DNA of 64,000 bases from the IMG/VR virus record IMGVR_UViG_3300023184_000037, positions 32,001 through 96,000 of that record. One strand, given 5' to 3'. Positions 38,395 to 64,000 of this stretch are shown here, one piece after another (the first letter of the stretch is position 1; every line of letters starts with the position of its first letter). Below the pieces are notes generated by a model. The model saw only the letters and a program-made list of their open reading frames with translations. It was not told the origin of the DNA and searched no databases. The stretch comes from a virus. The position numbers were made by a program, and so were the translations under genes.

Positions 38395-39519
38395 ATGCAA
38401 AGTCAAAAAATCACAGAAGATTTAAAGATAAAAATCAGGAGCTTGGTAAAACAAGCAATTGTAAAGGCTCATAATGAGCCAAGCAAGCATATGATTAAAG
38501 AGATGCCGGGTAGAATTACGATGGCATGTCCCTATTGTGGTGACTCGACGACTGACCATAAAAAGAAGCGTGGAAATCTCTACTGGGACACCTTACAATT
38601 CCACTGTTTTAACTGTGGAGTTCACTCAAATGCATACCAATTATTAAAAGACCATCACGTAAAATTCCAAAGCACAGATGATTCCATCCAAGTTATTGAT
38701 TACATTCAAGAACATAAAATGGAAACAAATGAAATTGAAGTCCTTGAACATGACGTTTTCAAATTGACTTATGATATGGCACCAACCCGAAAAGAATTAA
38801 TGGAATGGTTTAAATTTAAAGAAGTCGAACCTGGAGACCCAGCATTTTTCTATCTTAAGAATAGATTATTGGCCAGTCAAATGCACCGATTCATGTACTC
38901 TCCTAAGGATAAAAGAATTGTAGTACTCAATGTAGCTCCAAATGACAAAGTTATCGGTTTTCAAACTCGCTCAATCGACAAGCGTTCTAATTCTCGTTAT
39001 TTAACTTATGACCTTGAGAAGATGTATCAAGAGATTCAACGGGAGATTGTGCTTACTGATGAAGAGTTGATTGGCGTTAAAAAACTTTCAACACTATTTG
39101 GAGTAATGATCGTAGACTTTGAACGCGATGTTACAATGTTTGAAGGACCTATTGACGCAATGTTCATGCAAAATTCGATTGGCTTGGCAACTGCAGGTCG
39201 TTCAACTCTTGAATTTGATGAGATACCTACAATTAGATATATGTTTGATAACGATACTACCGGTAAAAAGAAGATGATGGAAAAGATCCGAAGAGGCAAG
39301 CAAATATTTACATGGGAGAAATTCTTTAAAGACACTAAAATTGACAAGGACTGGGAAGATTACCTACAAAAATTGGACAAAGATGAAAGAGATAAATATC
39401 CTAAACATATAGGTGATTTAAACGATTTGGTGATCGCATCGTGGCTAACAAAAAATAAATGTTTAGCACAGATTCAAAAGTATTTTACTAACTCCAGACT
39501 AGATGCATATTACCTATGA
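38395..39519 (+). CDS. DNA primase, T4 gp61-like
   Basis: Zn finger CPYCGDS...KRG...FHCFNCG; TOPRIM motifs FEGPIDAMF, FDND, DLND. Confidence 0.9.
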   Translation: MQSQKITEDLKIKIRSLVKQAIVKAHNEPSKHMIKEMPGRITMACPYCGDSTTDHKKKRGNLYWDTLQFHCFNCGVHSNAYQLLKDHHVKFQSTDDSIQVIDYIQEHKMETNEIEVLEHDVFKLTYDMAPTRKELMEWFKFKEVEPGDPAFFYLKNRLLASQMHRFMYSPKDKRIVVLNVAPNDKVIGFQTRSIDKRSNSRYLTYDLEKMYQEIQREIVLTDEELIGVKKLSTLFGVMIVDFERDVTMFEGPIDAMFMQNSIGLATAGRSTLEFDEIPTIRYMFDNDTTGKKKMMEKIRRGKQIFTWEKFFKDTKIDKDWEDYLQKLDKDERDKYPKHIGDLNDLVIASWLTKNKCLAQIQKYFTNSRLDAYYL

Positions 39520-39734
39520 TAAAAAAAGATTTTTTACAAATGGTTGCTCAGGAATTCGAAGATTTTGAAAATGAGAAAAACAAAAGAAAGAATATTAAGA
39601 TGATGCTTGATTTTAGCACATCAGCATATTCTCACAACACAAAAGAATTTAAAATGACTAAGCCAAGATTAAAGGCAAAGTTAAAAAGTTCAGTATTCAT
39701 TAAGGACAATAATAAAGGAAATTCACTTTTTTAA
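39516..39734 (+). CDS. Hypothetical protein
   Basis: 72 aa, ATGA overlap with primase. Confidence 0.5.
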   Translation: MIKKDFLQMVAQEFEDFENEKNKRKNIKMMLDFSTSAYSHNTKEFKMTKPRLKAKLKSSVFIKDNNKGNSLF

Positions 39735-55643: not shown

Positions 55644-57080
55644 ATGGAATTCTTAGAAGCATTAAGACAAGAGGACATGGTAACTGAAAATGGAATGGCA
55701 ACTAATTCGACATCGTTGAATGCATGTGTTGACCTTTTCTTTAACATTGGAGCTATGAGAGGACAAGACAAACAACGTTTGATTGCTACTTTCTCTAAAG
55801 CATTTAATGAAGACCCTAAGCGTGCTATGAAACTCCTTTTTTGGGCTAGAGATGTTAGAGGTGGAGCTGGAGAACGTCAAGTTTTCAAGGACATTTTAGT
55901 TTATTTGGCAGAAAACCATGATTTGGTACTTAAACCAAACTTACACTTAATTTCAGAGTATGGTCGTTGGGATGACTTACTAGCCCTAGCAGGAACATAT
56001 CTTGAAAAGGAAGCATTCACCCTAATTTCTGATGCAATCATCAACGAAAATGGTTTATGTGCTAAATGGATGCCACGTAAAGGAGCAGTAGCTGAAAAGT
56101 TACGTAAATTTACTGGAATGTCCCCAAAGCAGTACAGAAAATCTCTTGTAGGTTTAACTAATGTTGTTGAAACTAAAATGTGTGCTAAAGACTGGAATTC
56201 TATCGATTTCGGTAAATTACCATCTGTCGCTTCAGCAAGATACCAAAAAGCATTTGGTAAAAACGCATACGAAAGTTATTCAGCCTATATTGCTTCTCTT
56301 GTAAAAGGTGAGGCTAAAATTAATGCAGGTGCAGTTTACCCATACGATGTGACTAAGTCTCTAAATTATGGAAACTCAAGCGTAGCAAACGAACAATGGA
56401 AAGCTCTTCCAAACTATATGGAAGGCGCAAACGATATGATTTTACCAGTGGTTGATGTCTCAGGTTCTATGTCTTGCCCAGCAGGCGGTAGTAAATCTGT
56501 AACATGTATGGATGTTGCAATCTCATTAGGTCTTTATATTTCTGAAAGAAATGAAGGTCCTTTCAAAGATGCATTCATTACTTTCTCAAGTAAACCACAG
56601 TTACAAGTATTAAGTGGCTCATTGAGTGATCGCTACACACAGATGTCAAACTCTGATTGGGGAATGTCAACGGATCTTGAGGCGACCTTCAAATTGATTT
56701 TAAATCAGGCCACTAAGCATAAACTATCGCAAGATAAAATGCCAAATAAAATCCTAATCCTATCGGATATGGAATTTAATGCAGCAGTTTATACTGGAGG
56801 TTATAGTACTAGATTTAAAGGTGGAACTTGGAATCCAACTGCTCAGCAAATGATTGAGCAAATGTATGCTGACGCAGGTTACAAAGTACCTCAAATTGTT
56901 TACTGGAATATTCAATCCCGAAATGGAGGAGTACCAGTTGCATTTGATACTCAAGGAACTGCACTGGTTTCAGGATTCTCTCCAGCAATTATGACAAGTT
57001 TACTTGGAGGAGACATAGAATCTCCACAACAAATAATGGATAAAACAATTTTGAGTGAGAGATACGCTCCAATTGTATAA
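55644..57080 (+). CDS. TROVE/vWA-domain protein (DUF2828-type, Ro60-like)
   Basis: TENG, RDVRGGAGER, YGRWDDL, AKWMPR helical part; vWA MIDAS VVDVSGSM, ITFS, STDL, LSDMEF, YWNI, VSGFSP. Confidence 0.85.
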   Translation: MEFLEALRQEDMVTENGMATNSTSLNACVDLFFNIGAMRGQDKQRLIATFSKAFNEDPKRAMKLLFWARDVRGGAGERQVFKDILVYLAENHDLVLKPNLHLISEYGRWDDLLALAGTYLEKEAFTLISDAIINENGLCAKWMPRKGAVAEKLRKFTGMSPKQYRKSLVGLTNVVETKMCAKDWNSIDFGKLPSVASARYQKAFGKNAYESYSAYIASLVKGEAKINAGAVYPYDVTKSLNYGNSSVANEQWKALPNYMEGANDMILPVVDVSGSMSCPAGGSKSVTCMDVAISLGLYISERNEGPFKDAFITFSSKPQLQVLSGSLSDRYTQMSNSDWGMSTDLEATFKLILNQATKHKLSQDKMPNKILILSDMEFNAAVYTGGYSTRFKGGTWNPTAQQMIEQMYADAGYKVPQIVYWNIQSRNGGVPVAFDTQGTALVSGFSPAIMTSLLGGDIESPQQIMDKTILSERYAPIV

Positions 57081-57537: not shown

Positions 57538-57813
57538 ATGAATATTTTAGACGAAGCAAGCGGAATTGTTAATAACCGCTCAGAAGAAGCAGACAGACAG
57601 TATGGTCCTTTCTCAGAAGGTATGGACAGAGCTGCAATGATTTTTAGAGGTATGACCGGAATCGAAGTTACCGGAGAACACATGTTTAAAGCACTAGTTG
57701 CACTTAAATTCAGTAGAGAATCGTACAATCACAAGCGTGATAATTTATTAGATGCAGTTGCATATATCCAAGGATTAGACAACTACATTAACGAAAAGCA
57801 AAACAATGGTTAA
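57538..57813 (+). CDS. DUF6378-like small helical protein (nucleotide-modification associated)
   Basis: 'ILDEA..IV..R....YG.F......A......LK.SR....KRDNLLDAVAY' pattern. Confidence 0.65.
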   Translation: MNILDEASGIVNNRSEEADRQYGPFSEGMDRAAMIFRGMTGIEVTGEHMFKALVALKFSRESYNHKRDNLLDAVAYIQGLDNYINEKQNNG

Positions 57814-58855
57814 TATTTACACAGTTTTAGATTCATTAAAGGGTAAGAAGATTGCAATTGATGATGTTGTAACTACTTATAGTTCAAAGAAGGCCAGCCA
57901 TAAAAGTGCATGGGCTTTCTTATTAGCTAATCAATTAAGGTCCCTAGGACTGGATGCTGAAGTACTTACCAAGTCAGAAGATATTCACCAATATGATGTT
58001 TGGTTAGTAGCACTTCCAATGGAATTCCAAGGTTCTTATAACCTATTTGGTGGAGCCACTGACGAACCAGCAGAAAGGATTAAAAGATTTTTAGATTTTG
58101 GTGGAACAATATATTGTTTGAATCGAGAAATGCCAGATGTTGGAGCATTCGCGCAAAGTCGAATGAAATCATGTTCACCCTTATGGGCATCTCTTAATGT
58201 TGAAGCACTTACAAAGAAGAGTAAAGAAACCGAAACAATTGAATTGAAATTGGCTTCCGGAACTTTTGTCTTAGGTGATTCCCATTCAGTTTCAGTATAC
58301 CAACCGGGCGCAAATATTAGCCGAAATGATGGTAAAACCCTATTTGGAGTTATGAAAGAGGGAATGACATCTTATATTCCTGAAGGAACTGACCATCTAA
58401 TTACATACTTTGGAAACATTGATGTTCGTCATCACTTATGCCGACAAGAAAAACCAGTCGACGCGGTTAAAGCCCTTGTAAAAAATTACTTTGAGCACTT
58501 ACAATCACTAGGAATTCAAAAGAATACCGTTGTAAAATTATTGCCTATCGAATTTGAAGGTCGCAGAATTCCAAAAACTGGGTACTATAAAGGTACTCCA
58601 TTTATCGGAACTCAACGAGAACGCACTCAATTGATGGAAATATTTAACGAAGAGGTTGACAAACTCTCGGCTATATATAATATGAACGTAATCGAATGGC
58701 CGATTCATTGGTACTCAGCAGACCCACAATATTTTGCCGATACTTACATGGAGAAACCAGGTTCCGTTCACCTATCTAGAGAGTTTTACCAATATGATTT
58801 CGAGACGTCCGAAAAAAATGTTGTGCTAAAGAAAACTATTAACACTCTTTTTTAA
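57806..58855 (+). CDS. Hypothetical protein with SGNH-like C-terminal domain
   Basis: LGDSHS, FGNIDVRHH, SVHLS motifs. Confidence 0.5.
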   Translation: MVNIYTVLDSLKGKKIAIDDVVTTYSSKKASHKSAWAFLLANQLRSLGLDAEVLTKSEDIHQYDVWLVALPMEFQGSYNLFGGATDEPAERIKRFLDFGGTIYCLNREMPDVGAFAQSRMKSCSPLWASLNVEALTKKSKETETIELKLASGTFVLGDSHSVSVYQPGANISRNDGKTLFGVMKEGMTSYIPEGTDHLITYFGNIDVRHHLCRQEKPVDAVKALVKNYFEHLQSLGIQKNTVVKLLPIEFEGRRIPKTGYYKGTPFIGTQRERTQLMEIFNEEVDKLSAIYNMNVIEWPIHWYSADPQYFADTYMEKPGSVHLSREFYQYDFETSEKNVVLKKTINTLF

Positions 58856-58866
58856 AACAAAATAAT

Positions 58867-59451
58867 ATGAAAAACATTTTTTTAGATTGTGGAACCCATC
58901 TATGTGAAGGGTTACTAGAATTTCAGGCTAAAGGAGTTATTGATGATACATTTGAGATTCATACCTTTGAGGCAAATCCTGAATGTAAAATAGAAGAACG
59001 TGTAAAGAAAATACCCTTAAATATTACTCCACATAATGTGGCAGTATGGATTGAGGACGGATTCGTATTGTTTAACCAAGAAAATCATAAAAAGAGTAAT
59101 TGCGGTTCCCCGACTGATGGACAATCCGATATAGATGGATGGGCATCTTCGATTAATGGAATAGGATTTTACTGGCCAGGATATGAGACCCATGTCCAAG
59201 TTCCAAGTATTGATTTTAGCAAGTTTGTTTCTGAGCTACCCAAAGATTCAAACATAATATGTAAAATGGATATTGAAGGTTCTGAATTCTCAGTCCTAAG
59301 AAAGATGATAGAAGAGGGTACAATTAGTAACATAAAGGAAATCTATATTGAGTTCCATGAAAGAGCTATGCCATCTGAATCTGTTGAATCCCGTCAAAAA
59401 ATAGTTAATGACATTACAAACCTAGGTGTAGTAGTACATGAATGGTTTTAA
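58867..59451 (+). CDS. FkbM-family SAM-dependent methyltransferase
   Basis: FLDCGTH..EG, HTFEANP, KMDIEGSEF, IYIEFH. Confidence 0.8.
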   Translation: MKNIFLDCGTHLCEGLLEFQAKGVIDDTFEIHTFEANPECKIEERVKKIPLNITPHNVAVWIEDGFVLFNQENHKKSNCGSPTDGQSDIDGWASSINGIGFYWPGYETHVQVPSIDFSKFVSELPKDSNIICKMDIEGSEFSVLRKMIEEGTISNIKEIYIEFHERAMPSESVESRQKIVNDITNLGVVVHEWF

Positions 59452-59452
59452 T

Positions 59453-59481
59453 TTGAAACTTTTTAAATAAAACTAGTATAA
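59453..59481 (+). promoter_or_regulatory. TTGAAAC-N17-TATAA promoter
   Basis: TTGAAAC 59453-59459, TATAA 59477-59481. Confidence 0.65.
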
Positions 59482-59507
59482 AAATTATAAATTAAATTTT
59501 AAGAAAA

Positions 59508-60695
59508 ATGAACAAAATTAAAGTAGGAATTATCGGAACAGGAAATTGCGCTAAATCATTAGTTGAAGGTGTACAATATTACACTGAAAATCCAAATGAT
59601 ATTACCGGAATGATGAAGTCCGATATTGGAGGTTACAAAGCAGAAAACATCGAGTTTGTATGTGGATTCGAAATTGATGAACGTAAAGTTAATCAAACAT
59701 TAGGATACGCTCTTAAACAAAGACCAAACTCTGCATGGGATATTGTTGACGTAATTCATTCTGAGGCTCCAGTTTATGAGGCTCCAGTTATTGATGGTTA
59801 TGCAGCCCTTATGGATAACTATCCAGAACAAAATCGTTTCTTAGTTGACGAAAAACTAAGAAATTCTACGGACATGAATCGTACTGATTGGACTCCAAAA
59901 AAATCACGTGAATGGAAAGACTCAATCATTGCTAAATTAAAAGAGCATGGTGTTGAAGTACTTATTAACTACTTACCAGTAGGTTCACAAAAAACAACTG
60001 AATTCTGGGCTGAAATTTGCCTTGAAACAGGAATCTCTTTAGTAAACTGTATTCCAGTTTTTATCGCATCTGACCCAGCTTGGGAGCAAAGATTTATCGA
60101 TGCTGGAATTCCAATTATCGGAGATGATATGCGTTCTCAATTTGGAGCAAGTATCCTTTCTCAAATGTTACAAGAACTTGCCTTTGAAAGAGGACATCAT
60201 GTAAAAGCGCACATCCAAAGAAATGTTGGAGGTAACACAGATTTCTTAAACATGGAAGACAAATCTCGTCTAGCATCTAAAAAGATTTCTAAAGAAAACG
60301 TAATTCGTGCCCAAAACGAAATTAGAGGAATCTCAACTGAAGATTCATTCTTACACGCTGGTCCTTCTGAGTATATTGCATTTTATGGCGATAACAAAGT
60401 TGCTAACTTCCGTTTAGAACTTACAGGATTCGGTGGAGCACCAGTTCTTTTTGATGCTCAATTAAGTGTACAAGACTCTCCAAACTCAGCTGGAGTAGTA
60501 ATCGATGCAGTTCGTTATTTAAGAGTTGCAAGAGAATTAGGAGTTGTAGGAGCATTAAGAGGTCCTTCAGCGTTTACTCAAAAAACCCCACCAGATCAAA
60601 TGATGTTTGCTGATGCTGTTTATGAGTGTACTGAATTGGCTGCAAGACGCTTAACAGATTCTACAAGAAAACAGTTAGTTGCTAAAAAAGCCTAA
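59508..60695 (+). CDS. ino1: myo-inositol-1-phosphate synthase
   Basis: GTGNCAKSLVEG, LINYLPVGS, VNCIPVFIA, GDDMRSQFGA, NVGGNTDFLNM, SKKISK, DSPNSAGVVIDAVR. Confidence 0.93.
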   Translation: MNKIKVGIIGTGNCAKSLVEGVQYYTENPNDITGMMKSDIGGYKAENIEFVCGFEIDERKVNQTLGYALKQRPNSAWDIVDVIHSEAPVYEAPVIDGYAALMDNYPEQNRFLVDEKLRNSTDMNRTDWTPKKSREWKDSIIAKLKEHGVEVLINYLPVGSQKTTEFWAEICLETGISLVNCIPVFIASDPAWEQRFIDAGIPIIGDDMRSQFGASILSQMLQELAFERGHHVKAHIQRNVGGNTDFLNMEDKSRLASKKISKENVIRAQNEIRGISTEDSFLHAGPSEYIAFYGDNKVANFRLELTGFGGAPVLFDAQLSVQDSPNSAGVVIDAVRYLRVARELGVVGALRGPSAFTQKTPPDQMMFADAVYECTELAARRLTDSTRKQLVAKKA

Positions 60696-60710
60696 CAATC
60701 CAATTAACCC

Positions 60711-60740
60711 AAAGGGGAGAGAATAACTCTCCCTTTTTTT
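60711..60740 (+). terminator. Intrinsic terminator after ino1
   Basis: GGGAGAG-aataa-CTCTCCC followed by T7. Confidence 0.75.
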
Positions 60741-60755
60741 ATCAAAACTTTACGC

Positions 60756-61154
60756 ATGTTAAACATATTTAAAACCAAAAAACCAGTCGATATCTATGGA
60801 TACGATTTTGATGGAGTAATTTCAATTGGAATAACTCCAAGAGCAACCACAGATTTTGTTATTACCGGAAGATGTATTGACGAACAAGACGAAATCCGTG
60901 CAATCCTTAAAGAGAGAGGAATTAAATGCAAAGTGTATTTTAATCCAATGACTCTTGAAGAACGTGGAAACCATACAGTTGCAGCTAGAAGGCATTCTGG
61001 AAATCACAAAGCAAAAACCCTTAATCGTTTAAAAGATGAAGGTGTTATTGTTTCACGTTTTTTTGAAGATGACCCAATCCAATACCAAATTATCCAGGAA
61101 AACTGTCCTGATGTTGAATTGGTTAACATTGTATCAAAATTAGTACAGAAATAA
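60756..61154 (+). CDS. HAD-superfamily phosphatase (capless)
   Basis: Motif I YDFDGV, II ITGR, III K, IV FEDD. Confidence 0.8.
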   Translation: MLNIFKTKKPVDIYGYDFDGVISIGITPRATTDFVITGRCIDEQDEIRAILKERGIKCKVYFNPMTLEERGNHTVAARRHSGNHKAKTLNRLKDEGVIVSRFFEDDPIQYQIIQENCPDVELVNIVSKLVQK

Positions 61155-61155
61155 G

Positions 61156-61857
61156 ATGAGTAGGGTTAAACTTCCTGAGTTTCCAATTTCTAAGTTAGAA
61201 AAAACTCGTCTTAAAAAGAAATACGTAAAAATATTGGGTGCAACCGAAGGTGTTGACGATAGTATGATTGGCGAAAGTATTGCTAATTACTTAATTCCTG
61301 AAATTGATTATAGGGGAATGGTTTGCCTTGACCTTGGAGCCAACATTGGAGCTTTTACTCAAATTGCGCTGGATGCCGGAGCAAGTAAAGTTTGTACTGT
61401 TGAATGCGATGCCAGAAACTTTGCAAAACTCGAGTCAACTTATAAAAATGATGATTACGTTGATTTGGTTTATGCTGCCGTTTCCGGATTGCCTAATAAA
61501 ACCTTAAAAATATTTAAGTCTGCTAGTCAAAACGCACATTGCTCAACATCAATTGAGAGCAAAATGAAGTTCAGCGAATATGATGAGGTCGAAAACATAC
61601 ACCTAAAAAAGTTACTAAAGAAATACAACCCAGATATTATCAAGATTGATATTGAATCTGCCGAGTATACCCTAATCGATACTTTATTAGATTATGAACC
61701 TAAATATTTATTTATTGAATTACACGCAGGAAAACATAGGGCTGAAATGTATCAAGTACTGGAAAGATTAGAGTCGATTTATCCGCATTCAAGAGTGGTT
61801 CCATTGATTATATTTACCGACAATTTGATAGCGCACGACTGCTTCTTTAAAAAATAA
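61156..61857 (+). CDS. FkbM-family SAM-dependent methyltransferase
   Basis: CLDLGANIGAF, VECD..NF, KIDIESAEY, FIELH. Confidence 0.82.
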   Translation: MSRVKLPEFPISKLEKTRLKKKYVKILGATEGVDDSMIGESIANYLIPEIDYRGMVCLDLGANIGAFTQIALDAGASKVCTVECDARNFAKLESTYKNDDYVDLVYAAVSGLPNKTLKIFKSASQNAHCSTSIESKMKFSEYDEVENIHLKKLLKKYNPDIIKIDIESAEYTLIDTLLDYEPKYLFIELHAGKHRAEMYQVLERLESIYPHSRVVPLIIFTDNLIAHDCFFKK

Positions 61858-61865
61858 AATATAAA

Positions 61866-63053
61866 ATGACTTCAAATAAACAACTGCTTGAGATGGATTC
61901 TCAAGCACTGTTGGATTTAATACCAACAGAAAAAAGACAATTGATCCGAGATTTTGTTCATGAAATGAATCGAAGAGAATATGAGGTTCGTTTTGCAAAA
62001 ACATGTACCTTTGATACTTTTAGACACAGAGAGGGTACTGGAGAGAACATCTTTGGCCATGGATTTATAGTAGAGGGACGTTCAGTTCCATACTTCCACC
62101 CAAACCGTTCATTCCACGATGAGATTATTTGGTTAAATGAAAATGTGTTCTACAATCCAGAATGTACTTTTGAAGACCGATTAATTAATGCAGCAATTGT
62201 AAAGTTCTATGGTCCGTCGAATACAATTAGTCTATTAACACACGACACTGGATTTCCATTCGTTAAATATGACCGATTGGTTAACGACGAGAAGTACGTT
62301 CTGCAGTGTATGGTTAATATGGAGAATGCAAGAAGGCGTGGTGAAAAGATTTATGGTACTACAGAATTACGAACAAGTCTACAGACCGAATCGAGAAATC
62401 ATGCAAGGGTTCTTAAAACTCCTTATGATGTATTAATTGGTGCCGAACCGGATCCAACCAGACAGAGTCGAACAAGTGATATGTTTTTTTGGTTTACCCT
62501 ACTAGGTCCACGTTTTGCAGAATTCTATGCCAAAAAACCGACGATGGAAGAGTCGTTTAACTTTTTAACATCACATCGAGGAATTGGAAACTATTATGGT
62601 TACCATTTTAGTACCAACCTTGCCCGAATGCCAGAAATCGGAACGCCAGACCTATTGCGACCAGGCAGCCTATCTGGAAATCTTAACGAAGACGATGACT
62701 TTGTTGCACCTGGAGTTGGAGCGATGACCACAATCAACTGGTTCTATGAACACTTAGGTTTTTCAATCTCGTCAGAAGTAGGAGCCAAGGTTATCAGACA
62801 AATCAGGGACACTCAACATGAATTCTTTGATTTTACTGGAGAAAATCTTGACTATTTAGAAACAATCACTGAGACCGGAAGATTTACAACGTTTGGTACA
62901 GAAATTAGTTGTTGTCAGTTTGGTGTATTTTTACGATTGAGAGATAGTAAAAAGATGGCCCTAAACCGAGCAAATGCTCCAATTTCTAAAGAACAAATTG
63001 GTGAATCATGCGAAGTAGATGAACCAACATTTAAAAGTTCATGTTTATTTTAA
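61866..63053 (+). CDS. aGPT-Pplase / amino acid:DNA transferase-like base-hypermodification enzyme (HhH-glycosylase fold)
   Basis: F...MNRRE near N-terminus, HhH-like GIGNYYGYH..TNL, APGVGA, C-terminal E.SCCQF..FLR (cf. E..LCEF.KY.R). Confidence 0.62.
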   Translation: MTSNKQLLEMDSQALLDLIPTEKRQLIRDFVHEMNRREYEVRFAKTCTFDTFRHREGTGENIFGHGFIVEGRSVPYFHPNRSFHDEIIWLNENVFYNPECTFEDRLINAAIVKFYGPSNTISLLTHDTGFPFVKYDRLVNDEKYVLQCMVNMENARRRGEKIYGTTELRTSLQTESRNHARVLKTPYDVLIGAEPDPTRQSRTSDMFFWFTLLGPRFAEFYAKKPTMEESFNFLTSHRGIGNYYGYHFSTNLARMPEIGTPDLLRPGSLSGNLNEDDDFVAPGVGAMTTINWFYEHLGFSISSEVGAKVIRQIRDTQHEFFDFTGENLDYLETITETGRFTTFGTEISCCQFGVFLRLRDSKKMALNRANAPISKEQIGESCEVDEPTFKSSCLF

Positions 63054-63095
63054 ACAAGTTCAAAATTACCTATAAAACTATTATATAAAAAACTT

Positions 63096-63563
63096 ATGGC
63101 AAATATAGACAATCAATGTAAAGACCTGGAAGTTAAAGACTTCTATTCAGATTCGACCACCCACCTGGCGGATATTATGGAAAACCAAAAGAAAATGCAG
63201 GAGCAGACTTATGGCTTTAATTTTGAAAATATGTCAATTAGAGAAATTATGAACTTCTGGCATGTTAATACACATGCAGTAGTTGATGAAATTCACGAGA
63301 TGACAGATGCCCTTGGAGGTATTAAAGATGGTAGTGGAAATGCAGTTTGGAAATACTGGAAAAAAGACTTTTCAAAGTATGAAACTATGAAAATTAGCGA
63401 TCTATCTGAAGAGGACAAAAAAGAACTTTATATGGAATGGGTAGACATACTACACTTCTTTATAAATTATGCGTCTTCAATCGGATTAGATGCAAAAACA
63501 GCTTACAATTATTACTTCGCGAAAGCAGAAGAAAATGTCGCAAGACAACAACGAGGGTATTAA
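63096..63563 (+). CDS. All-alpha dNTP pyrophosphatase (dimeric dUTPase / T4 gp56 dCTPase-like)
   Basis: DEIHE, WKYWKK, EWVDILHF, K..EN..RQ..GY. Confidence 0.82.
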   Translation: MANIDNQCKDLEVKDFYSDSTTHLADIMENQKKMQEQTYGFNFENMSIREIMNFWHVNTHAVVDEIHEMTDALGGIKDGSGNAVWKYWKKDFSKYETMKISDLSEEDKKELYMEWVDILHFFINYASSIGLDAKTAYNYYFAKAEENVARQQRGY

Positions 63564-63606: not shown

Positions 63607-64000
63607 ATGAAAGCATTTATATATCAATGGACTAATAATCTAAACGGAAAGAAATACATCGGATCACACATTGGAGAGCCTGAAGACGGTTATGCCGGTT
63701 CAGGCTCTTATTTTAAGAAAGCATTTAATAAATATAAAGATTTTTTTACTAGAGAAATTTTAGAAACTATAGATGGAGAAAATGTCTATGATAGAATTAA
63801 AATACTCGAAGAATCATATTTACAAAAAGTAGATGCTGCTAATAATTCCAATTATTATAATATCACAAATTCATATTATGGCGGTAATGTATATCAAGGG
63901 TTATCAATAGATGATAAAAAGAAAATGATAGAAGGTCGGACCAATGCCGCAAAAAATGATAGATTAAAAAATCCTCAAAAATATGAAGACATTGCTAAAA
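63607..64000 (+). mobile_element. GIY-YIG homing endonuclease (Seg-like), truncated by window end
   Basis: Translated by hand: MKAFIYQWTNNLNGKKYIGSH...DGYAGSG...FTREILE; GATATATA at 63595 and hairpin 63573-63590 upstream. Confidence 0.8.

Follow-up and report, generated by a model that had tools for sequence, protein, structure and literature searches.

Gene content of the module

The window analysed here comprises bases 32001-96000 (64,000 nucleotides) of the IMG/VR phage contig IMGVR_UViG_3300023184_000037 (145,137 bases), which originates from a large T4-like lake phage. The contig has a G + C content of about 33%, carries 155 of its 164 open reading frames (ORFs) on the same strand and has near-identical relatives that reach 234-236 kb. 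Between window positions 57538 and 63563, eight ORFs form a candidate module for the hypermodification of 5-hydroxymethylcytosine (5hmC) in DNA. In this order, they encode a small DUF6378 protein, a two-domain SGNH protein (P2), an FkbM-family methyltransferase, the inositol-phosphate synthase Ino1, a small HAD phosphatase, a second FkbM-family methyltransferase, a PF18723 protein (P7) and a gp56-type dCTPase/dUTPase. All eight are located on the plus strand, and neighbouring ORFs overlap or are separated by gaps of at most 61 nt. A preliminary description of this DNA, made from the nucleotide sequence, had proposed an inositol-based pathway encoded by eight co-oriented genes, the orientation and exact coordinates of which were recovered in our analysis.

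P7 (61866..63053) has a length of 395 amino acids (aa) and matches PF18723 (HMUDK_hel), the second aGPT-Pplase paralogue, which is also represented by M6 gp55 and by the C-terminal domain of SP10 gp186, a kinase fusion. The score of 32.1 bits (E 1e-7) is above the gathering cut-off of 25, and distant members of the P7 clade reach 50-56 bits. In hhalign comparisons, the P7 alignment matched M6 gp55 with an E-value of 5e-5 and ORF120 of Ralstonia phage RP13 with an E-value of 3.5e-3. The identity of the clade to known PF18723 proteins is only about 20-27%. A Pfam scan of P7 at E-values up to 10 listed PF18723 alone, and thus not the AADT family PF18724. Membership in PF18724 was not supported by hhalign either, which yielded a probability of 0.2% for the P7 alignment and M6 gp51, a protein that itself scored 159.6 bits on PF18724. 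The same comparison revealed no relation to gp123 of Caulobacter phage Cr30 or to p227 and p228 of phage 25.

The AlphaFold 2 (AF2) model of P7, based on a 40-sequence alignment, has a predicted local distance difference test score (pLDDT) of 90.7. When examined with VIA-align, the best match of the model was QNG1 (Z 9.4), followed by the AADT PaMx11 gp46, a 5-phosphomethyl-deoxyuridine (5-PmdU) glycinyltransferase (8z2m_A; Z 9.0, root-mean-square deviation (rmsd) 4.8, 220 of 287 residues), and then by about 20 helix-hairpin-helix (HhH) DNA glycosylases. This HhH DNA-glycosylase-like fold was revealed by the exhaustive VIA-align search alone. Foldseek against the PDB returned nothing below an E-value of 0.6, and phmmer and hmmsearch comparisons of P7, of the P7 and P2 alignments and of the HAD protein with PDB sequences gave no meaningful match.

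Glu346, Cys350 and the GIG hairpin (G239-G241) of P7 are invariant in 40 sequences. The motif Glu346-x3-Cys350-x-Phe (EISCCQF) aligns with EHTLCEF of M6 gp55 and ENSFCEL of RP13 ORF120, and its spacing is that of ETVLCKW in M6 gp51. Both the Cys and the Glu of the M6 gp51 motif are essential (PMC8989533), and the equivalent Cys247 of PaMx11 gp46 was proposed to add to C6 (PMC11472151). Glu346 and Cys350 are a putative catalytic pair. Based on the shared fold and E-x3-C motif, our reading is that P7 works like an AADT, yet is not a member of the AADT family. The preliminary assignment of this gene as aGPT-Pplase/AADT-like is retained for fold and motif, while the family is PF18723 and not PF18724.

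Ino1 (59508..60695) is, by homology, a myo-inositol-phosphate synthase (myo-inositol-1-phosphate, i.e. inositol-3-phosphate, synthase). It scores 80.5 bits on PF01658 (E 1.2e-22), with a cut-off of 27, and matches the myo-inositol-phosphate synthase (MIPS) of M. tuberculosis (PDB 1gr0; E 1.6e-77 over two stretches) and phrog_33138 (2e-146). The score of 286 bits on TIGR03450 is below the equivalog cut-off of 638. The next PDB match is the five-membered-cyclitol-phosphate synthase 6k96 (E 9e-41), and because this related MIPS-like enzyme makes a five-membered cyclitol, the exact product of Ino1 is not certain.

The HAD protein (60756..61154; 132 aa) is a predicted cap-less phosphatase of the PNKP/GmhB-like type. 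Across 92 distinct homologues, its motifs D17-x-D19-G-V, I-T-G-R and E-D-D show a conservation of at least 95%. Neither a Pfam match nor a PDB sequence match was found, and phrog_415, a polynucleotide-kinase phosphatase phrog, was matched weakly. The protein is 43% identical to the product of the gene after Ino1 in Stenotrophomonas phage Ps15 (E 5e-30) and 41% identical to Cr30 gp118 (E 1e-26). As the constant partner of phage Ino1, the small HAD protein is probably an inositol-phosphate phosphatase. The Ps15 homologue is annotated as polynucleotide kinase (locus L002:6098-11624).

P2 (57806..58855; 349 aa) was modelled by AF2 with a pLDDT of 89.6 and consists of two alpha/beta domains. The C-terminal domain (residues ~150-338) has an SGNH fold (Z 12.5 to 3p94, rmsd 3.2, 165 aligned residues), and its score on the Pfam family Lipase_GDSL (17.6) is below the cut-off of 23.6. 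The motifs G157-D158-S159-H160 and G203-N204-I205-D206, as well as H322, are invariant or nearly so; because of this conservation, the SGNH domain is probably catalytically active. The N-terminal domain (~1-148) was aligned by hhalign with residues 25-122 of the T4 beta-glucosyltransferase (BGT) at a probability of 65% (E 6e-5), with NLFGGA opposite NFFGGK. PF09198, the profile of the BGT N-domain, finds T4 BGT and had no match in the five relatives searched. With the P2 N-domain as query, the ESM Atlas yielded no usable match, and Foldseek against BFVD returned homologues of P2 itself, SGNH proteins and low-probability glycosyltransferase (GT) rows only. In Aeromonas phages 44RR2.8t (ORF233c), 31 and relatives, P2 and P7 form a single fusion protein of 795 aa, and phrog_17781 represents this fusion.

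Both FkbM proteins are predicted S-adenosylmethionine (SAM)-dependent methyltransferases with PF05050 and TIGR01444 scores above the cut-offs (22.7 and 37.7 bits, respectively). The first (58867..59451; 42.1 and 55.6 bits) is accessory: it is present in 7 of the 47 members of the closest cluster and in few relatives overall. The second (61156..61857; 47.7 and 62.2 bits) occurs in 42 of 47 and 35 of 39 members of the two largest clusters and is missing from several others. Comparison of the FkbM proteins with the PDB yielded matches to the SAM motif only.

P2 and P7 share a feature of their C-termini. Eight of the 164 ORFs of the contig end in Leu-Phe (LF), with 0.63 expected, among them the C part of the B-family DNA polymerase (PolB; YSTSLF), a FEN/RNase H-like exonuclease (KKINTLF), P2 (KTINTLF) and P7 (KSSCLF). 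Of 120 homologues each, 87 of P2 and 21 of P7 have the LF end. The 44RR fusion ends in CSLDGLFAI, which is close to ASLDFLFG of T4 gp43, the tail of which binds the gp45 clamp. The LF end may therefore be a shared clamp-binding tail, by means of which P2 and P7 would probably ride the sliding clamp. The LF ending is further present in proteins of 147 aa (KHINRLF) and 72 aa, and window positions 39516-39734 are among the LF-tail sites. Many P7 homologues (among them P0014, P0016, P0025 and P0042) are longer, at 480-567 aa; their additional 100-170 C-terminal residues have no Pfam match and end in ...YRRx, not LF.

Target base and distribution of the module

The only thymidylate synthase (TS) homologue of the contig is encoded at contig positions 12337-13191, outside the window and about 77 kb upstream of the module. 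Among proteins of solved structure, it is most similar to T4 dCMP hydroxymethylase and MilA, and the BLASTP comparison with T4 gp42 resulted in an E-value of 3e-18. The signature KDFVC and RSNDIFYGLTFD shows L143D, a retained D169 (RSND) and N177D (E. coli ThyA numbering), as in T4 gp42. In TS homologues, N177D selects cytosine, L143D/E accompanies hydroxymethylation and D169N is the mark of 5-hydroxy-dCMP synthases (PMC13326640). The protein therefore reads as a gp42-type dCMP hydroxymethylase. The gp42-type signature was present in all nine module-bearing genomes checked, namely this contig, five IMG/VR relatives (three of them complete), Aeromonas phage 44RR2.8t and two JGI contigs; the true thymidylate synthases of those genomes carry LPPC and PFN.

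The last gene of the module (63096..63563; 155 aa) encodes a predicted all-alpha dCTPase/dUTPase with 34% identity over 97 aa to T4 gp56 (BLASTP E 2e-19) and a match to phrog_173 (8e-14). A gp56-type gene follows P7 in the two largest clusters. Together, the gp42-type enzyme and the gp56-type dCTPase indicate that cytosine is replaced by 5hmC. Because the contig carries a gp42-type dCMP hydroxymethylase (L143D, D169 kept, N177D), we take the target base to be 5hmC, and not 5-hydroxymethyluracil (5hmU) or 5-hydroxycytosine (5hoC). A 5hmU target for P7 was rejected on the Asp (dCMP) signature in every module-bearing genome checked, and a 5hoC target, as made via a 5-hydroxy-dCMP synthase of the RB69 gp48 type, on the retained D169 (Asp in RSND). 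The preliminary description had left the base as 5hmU or 5hmC and had placed the hydroxymethylase outside the window. The gene was indeed found there, 5hmU can be dropped from the two bases, and the proposed gp56-like pyrophosphatase was borne out.

In three relatives with a gp42-type hydroxymethylase, a C5 DNA methylase (PF00145) is encoded just after the module (L009:13028-14248, L010:12655-13881 and the JGI contig of P0025). Such a neighbour is odd if all cytosines are replaced. PF00145 is absent from the present contig.

For comparison of the module among phages, IMG/VR was scanned with the P7 alignment and Ino1, and five metagenome contigs were added. This resulted in 130 viral loci with a near-full P7, which form 47 clusters at 90% identity, 18 at 70% and 4 at 50%. 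At the 70% level, 17 of the 18 clusters have Ino1 and P2 encoded beside P7. The genes are arranged in at least five different orders, e.g. P2-Ino1-HAD-FkbM-P7, Ino1-HAD-P7-P2 and P2-Ino1-FkbM-HAD-P7, and a gp42-like gene is adjacent in 11 of 18 clusters. All 65 additional Ino1 loci with enough flanking sequence carry P2 and P7. Alignment-based sampling aimed at distant viral Ino1 again yielded the closest 80 loci. IMG/VR contains 534 relatives of Ino1 and 90 of P7. Ino1 is the better conserved of the two proteins, and at some loci it is 83-91% identical where P7 is only 27% identical. Because the gene cluster recurs in 17 of 18 P7 clusters with rearranged order, the clustering of the module genes is far beyond chance. 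The co-occurrence of ino1 with AADT-type genes across phages, as suggested in the preliminary description, was observed for P7 and, in the form of a PF18724 AADT near Ino1, for Cr30.

The exception among the 18 clusters is Aeromonas phage 44RR, in which the P2-P7 fusion directly follows a sugar-type sodium:solute symporter (SSF). The symporter takes the place of Ino1, which is absent. This arrangement fits with import, instead of synthesis, of a small substrate.

Outside the P7 clade, Ino1 was found near other modification genes. In Cr30 (NC_025422, 53130-57655), gp123 is a strong PF18724 AADT (E 1.3e-52) encoded two genes upstream of Ino1. A weak TET-associated-glycosyltransferase (TAGT)-like gene lies between the two, and the small HAD gp118 follows Ino1. 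Cr30 has a TS homologue of canonical appearance, and the search for a PF18747 kinase in this phage was negative. In RP13 (LC554890), ORF120 is a strong PF18723 protein (E 1.7e-48), ORF125 is Ino1 and ORF133 is a PF18747 5-hmdU DNA kinase 2, so that Ino1 is situated between the PF18723 gene and the kinase gene. The genome also encodes a hydroxymethylase of the dUMP type (Asn at position 177), and RP13 may perform an inositol-linked thymidine hypermodification. With the Ps15 locus considered below, three different toolkits for DNA-base modification occur in the neighbourhood of phage Ino1.

Proposed pathway and alternative explanations

Based on gene content, conservation and predicted structures, we consider it reasonably probable that the genes constitute a post-replicative 5hmC hypermodification module, in which inositol is made, attached to 5hmC by P7 and tailored by FkbM enzymes. 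Ino1 and the HAD phosphatase would convert host glucose-6-phosphate to free myo-inositol. P7 would flip 5hmC out of the duplex, its Cys350 would add to C6, and Glu346 would assist the departure of the C5 hydroxyl, either as such or in activated form. Attack of an inositol hydroxyl on the exocyclic methylene would then yield an ether-linked 5-(inosityl-oxymethyl)cytosine. This chemistry is modelled on that of the AADT enzymes, which is proven on 5-phosphomethyl-uracil. One or two FkbM enzymes would O-methylate the cyclitol, either before or after its attachment. P2, the obligate partner of P7, would acylate the 5hmC hydroxyl, thereby replacing the missing DNA kinase, or would tailor the adduct. 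Homology supports the predicted hmC supply and inositol-phosphate synthesis; the dephosphorylation, O-methylation and Cys-mediated coupling we infer.

The weakest point of the proposal is the leaving group, because no PF18748 kinase was found. The hydroxyl could leave directly with acid catalysis by Glu346, or after acylation by P2, and the P2-P7 fusion fits direct dehydration and acylation alike. A 5-hydroxymethyl DNA kinase had been expected elsewhere in the genome, an expectation that was not supported: PF18748 was found neither in the contig nor in five relatives, three of them complete, genomes in which PF18747 was not searched, and a small P-loop protein was likewise not found in the contig.

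Several further observations weigh against the proposed pathway. P7 is placed outside the biochemically proven AADT family PF18724, and M6 gp55, the one PF18723 member tested, was dispensable for glycinylation in vitro. Z-scores of about 9 for an all-helical model are moderate by VIA-align's own caveat. The likeness of the P2 N-domain to that of T4 BGT, for which the 65% hhalign probability is the single indication, can tentatively be taken as a lead only. P2 also occurs without P7 or Ino1, in Aeromonas phage 25 (beside a UDP-galactopyranose mutase gene) and in Tenacibaculum phage PTm1. In Ps15, the Ino1-HAD pair is located inside a 7-deazaguanine cluster (GTP cyclohydrolase, QueC, TGT/DpdA-like, QueE) of a genome without a TS homologue. 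A T4 gp1-type dNMP kinase was found neither in the contig nor in two complete relatives, its detection being limited to 44RR and a weak match in one relative. Finally, the adduct is a predicted one, the nature of which is a matter of pure inference. The pathway idea of the preliminary description is thus strongly backed in its core by comparative genomics and not by chemistry, and its choice of base, the family of P7 and the kinase had to be corrected.

Because P2 occurs without P7 or Ino1, it looks like a general hmC-DNA-directed esterase/acyltransferase that is not specific for inositol. The arrangement in phage 25 suggests that this SGNH partner also serves another kind of hmC decoration. 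The stand-alone P2 gene of this phage (L093:3671-6942) also adjoins a gene for a 358-aa phrog_14998 protein, and the locus corresponds in position to the symporter and P2-P7 fusion genes of 44RR. The SGNH-like gene of the preliminary description had been given no role; its fold was recovered, and its product is the obligate partner of P7, with which it is fused in Aeromonas phages.

These occurrences lead to a first alternative, namely that P2 and P7 put another group (acyl or a small nucleophile) on 5hmC, and that Ino1, HAD and FkbM form an auxiliary metabolic unit, which would provide inositol or methyl-inositol as osmolyte, lipid head group or signalling compound and be co-located merely as early genes. 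Ino1-HAD pairs without P2 and P7 in Menderavirus phages, P2 without Ino1 and the P2-P7 fusion without Ino1 in 44RR are in line with this explanation. However, Ino1 is kept beside P7 and P2 in 17 of 18 P7 clusters despite at least five rearrangements, and it also neighbours the AADT gene in Cr30 or PF18723 and kinase genes in RP13. The 44RR symporter at the spot of the missing Ino1 further argues that the P2-P7 pair needs a supplied polyol or sugar. We therefore regard an auxiliary unit as rather unlikely.

A second alternative retains module and base, with inositol phosphate or phosphate-linked inositol as the attached group (a phosphodiester on the 5hmC hydroxyl) and with the HAD enzyme acting on the DNA-bound adduct. 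The TGR/PNKP-GmhB-type motifs of this enzyme and its weak phrog_415 match speak for such a role, and an NTP-transferase-like gene near Ino1 in one relative could make a CDP- or UDP-type donor. However, the Ino1-HAD pair is kept even without P7, which fits a two-step synthesis of free inositol. Moreover, the module of the window and most clusters lack a nucleotidyltransferase, and the Cys/Glu motif is indicative of a displacement reaction at the C5 methylene, not of phosphoryl transfer. We judge a phosphate link to be about as unlikely as the auxiliary unit.

That the module acts on RNA, virion protein or glycan, or host envelope lipids, with P7 merely a nucleic-acid-binding or glycosylase-like protein, is very improbable: the structure closest to the P7 model is that of the queuosine-nucleotide hydrolase QNG1 and SGNH enzymes usually act on lipids and carbohydrates, but the module is embedded in replication and nucleotide-metabolism genes, beside gp56-like and often gp42-like genes, P7 has the catalytic motif of DNA-acting AADTs, the tails of P2 and P7 resemble the clamp-binding tail of the polymerase, and PF18723 is otherwise found only in thymidine-hypermodification clusters.

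The coupling of a cyclitol to 5hmC by P7 can be placed in a wider context. Many uncultured T4-like phages, together with variants in 44RR/31, Cr30 and RP13, might use a cyclitol, made by the phage or imported, for DNA bases, in the present case as a kinase-free, O-methylated ether on 5hmC made by a clamp-tethered PF18723-SGNH pair. In this full breadth, the proposal is tentative and a little less probable than not.

Relation to known systems and neighbouring genes

The module belongs, as a variant, to a known kind of system, the aGPT-Pplase-type post-replicative hypermodification of 5-hydroxymethyl pyrimidines. To our knowledge, aGPT-Pplase chemistry has so far been limited to hmU, to amino acids or polyamines and to pathways with a DNA kinase, and all known hmC decorations are glycosides formed from nucleoside diphosphate (NDP)-sugars by GT-B enzymes. 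In full-text literature searches, DNA bases that carry inositol or a cyclitol were not encountered. Among published systems, those for thymidine hypermodification (PMC8989533, PMC5889632, PMC11472151) and for arabinosyl-5hoC (PMC13326640) come closest.

The 5-HMUDK and AADT (PF18724) systems of phages M6, PaMx11, ViI and PhiW-14 (PMC8989533, PMC11472151) share with the module a hydroxymethyl pyrimidine made by a TS homologue and modification after replication, as well as an HhH glycosylase-like fold, the E-x3-C motif and a small-molecule nucleophile. A hydroxyl nucleophile is already known among them (serine, ViI). They differ in the target base (5hmU, compared to 5hmC here), in the transferase family (PF18724, compared to PF18723) and in the presence of a DNA kinase, no P-loop form of which was found here. 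In addition, the nucleophile of the present phage would be a phage-made cyclitol, and an SGNH protein is the obligate partner. The known PF18723 proteins (M6 gp55, the SP10 gp186 C-domain and RP13 ORF120) have the Pfam match, the GxG hairpin and the E-x3-C motif in common with P7. In hmU phages, they occur alongside a 5-hmdU DNA kinase or as a fusion with it, whereas P7 occurs without a PF18748 kinase in hmC phages.

The glucosyl-hmC system of T4 shares the gp42-type hydroxymethylase, the gp56-type dCTPase and the decoration of hmC after replication. Possible further similarities are the P2 N-domain, compared to that of BGT, and clamp binding by the enzymes; the T4 alpha-glucosyltransferase has been reported to bind gp45. 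In contrast to T4, neither a GT-B transferase nor an NDP-sugar donor is present here, an SGNH fold takes the place of the donor domain, and the adduct is expected to be linked as a cyclitol ether instead of a glycosidic acetal. Alpha- or beta-glucosyltransferases of the T4 type were absent from five module-bearing genomes, with T4 as positive control for the BGT search. The arabinosyl-5-hydroxycytosine clusters of RB69 and DLP3 (PMC13326640) also combine a TS homologue, a precursor pathway fed by sugar phosphate, a small HAD phosphatase and DNA transferases. They make 5hoC (D169N) and use UDP-arabinose with GT-B transferases, whereas the present phage keeps D169 and has neither.

If true, an hmC-linked cyclitol ether would represent a chemically new, non-glycosidic class of natural DNA bases, and the adduct would probably resist glycosidases as well as hmC- and ghmC-specific (ghmC, glucosyl-hmC) restriction and glycosylase defences. 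It would be isobaric with glucosyl-5hmdC, so that routine liquid chromatography-mass spectrometry (LC-MS) could misassign it. The +162 Da adduct that had been put forward as a check would consequently not prove inositol by mass alone. The proposal would also provide a first function for PF18723, the first SGNH enzyme acting on DNA, within an SGNH family that is widespread in phages, and enzymes for the attachment of polyols to hmC in DNA. Because variants of the module are present in cultured phages, it is accessible to experiment; Cr30 could be tested for an inositol-DNA adduct.

The first gene of the module (57538..57813) encodes a DUF6378 protein of 91 aa (PF19905, E 1.2e-8; 35.6 bits, cut-off 27.1). 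It is strongly conserved in 57 distinct homologues, and the gene is located upstream of P2 in most P7 clusters. A terminator-like hairpin with a T-run lies between the Ino1 and HAD genes (60714..60732, plus strand). The evidence for this element is weak, and in promoter and terminator scans of the region the numbers of sites were not above the shuffled expectation.

Just 5' of the module, at window positions 55644-57080, a TROVE/Ro60-like protein is encoded (DUF2828 and DUF7788; phrog_850, 'RNA-binding protein'), followed by a 457-nt stretch without a sizeable plus-strand ORF. On the other side, a GIY-YIG homing-endonuclease-like ORF (phrog_314) occupies window positions 63607-63999, continues to contig position 96476, and is inserted between the dCTPase and DNA polymerase genes. 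In one relative (L006), the polymerase gene comes directly after that for the dCTPase. The B-family DNA polymerase of the contig is split into an N part of 465 aa (contig 96501-97898) and a C part of 398 aa (contig 104200-105396), and the approximately 6 kb between the two parts hold ribonucleotide reductase genes.

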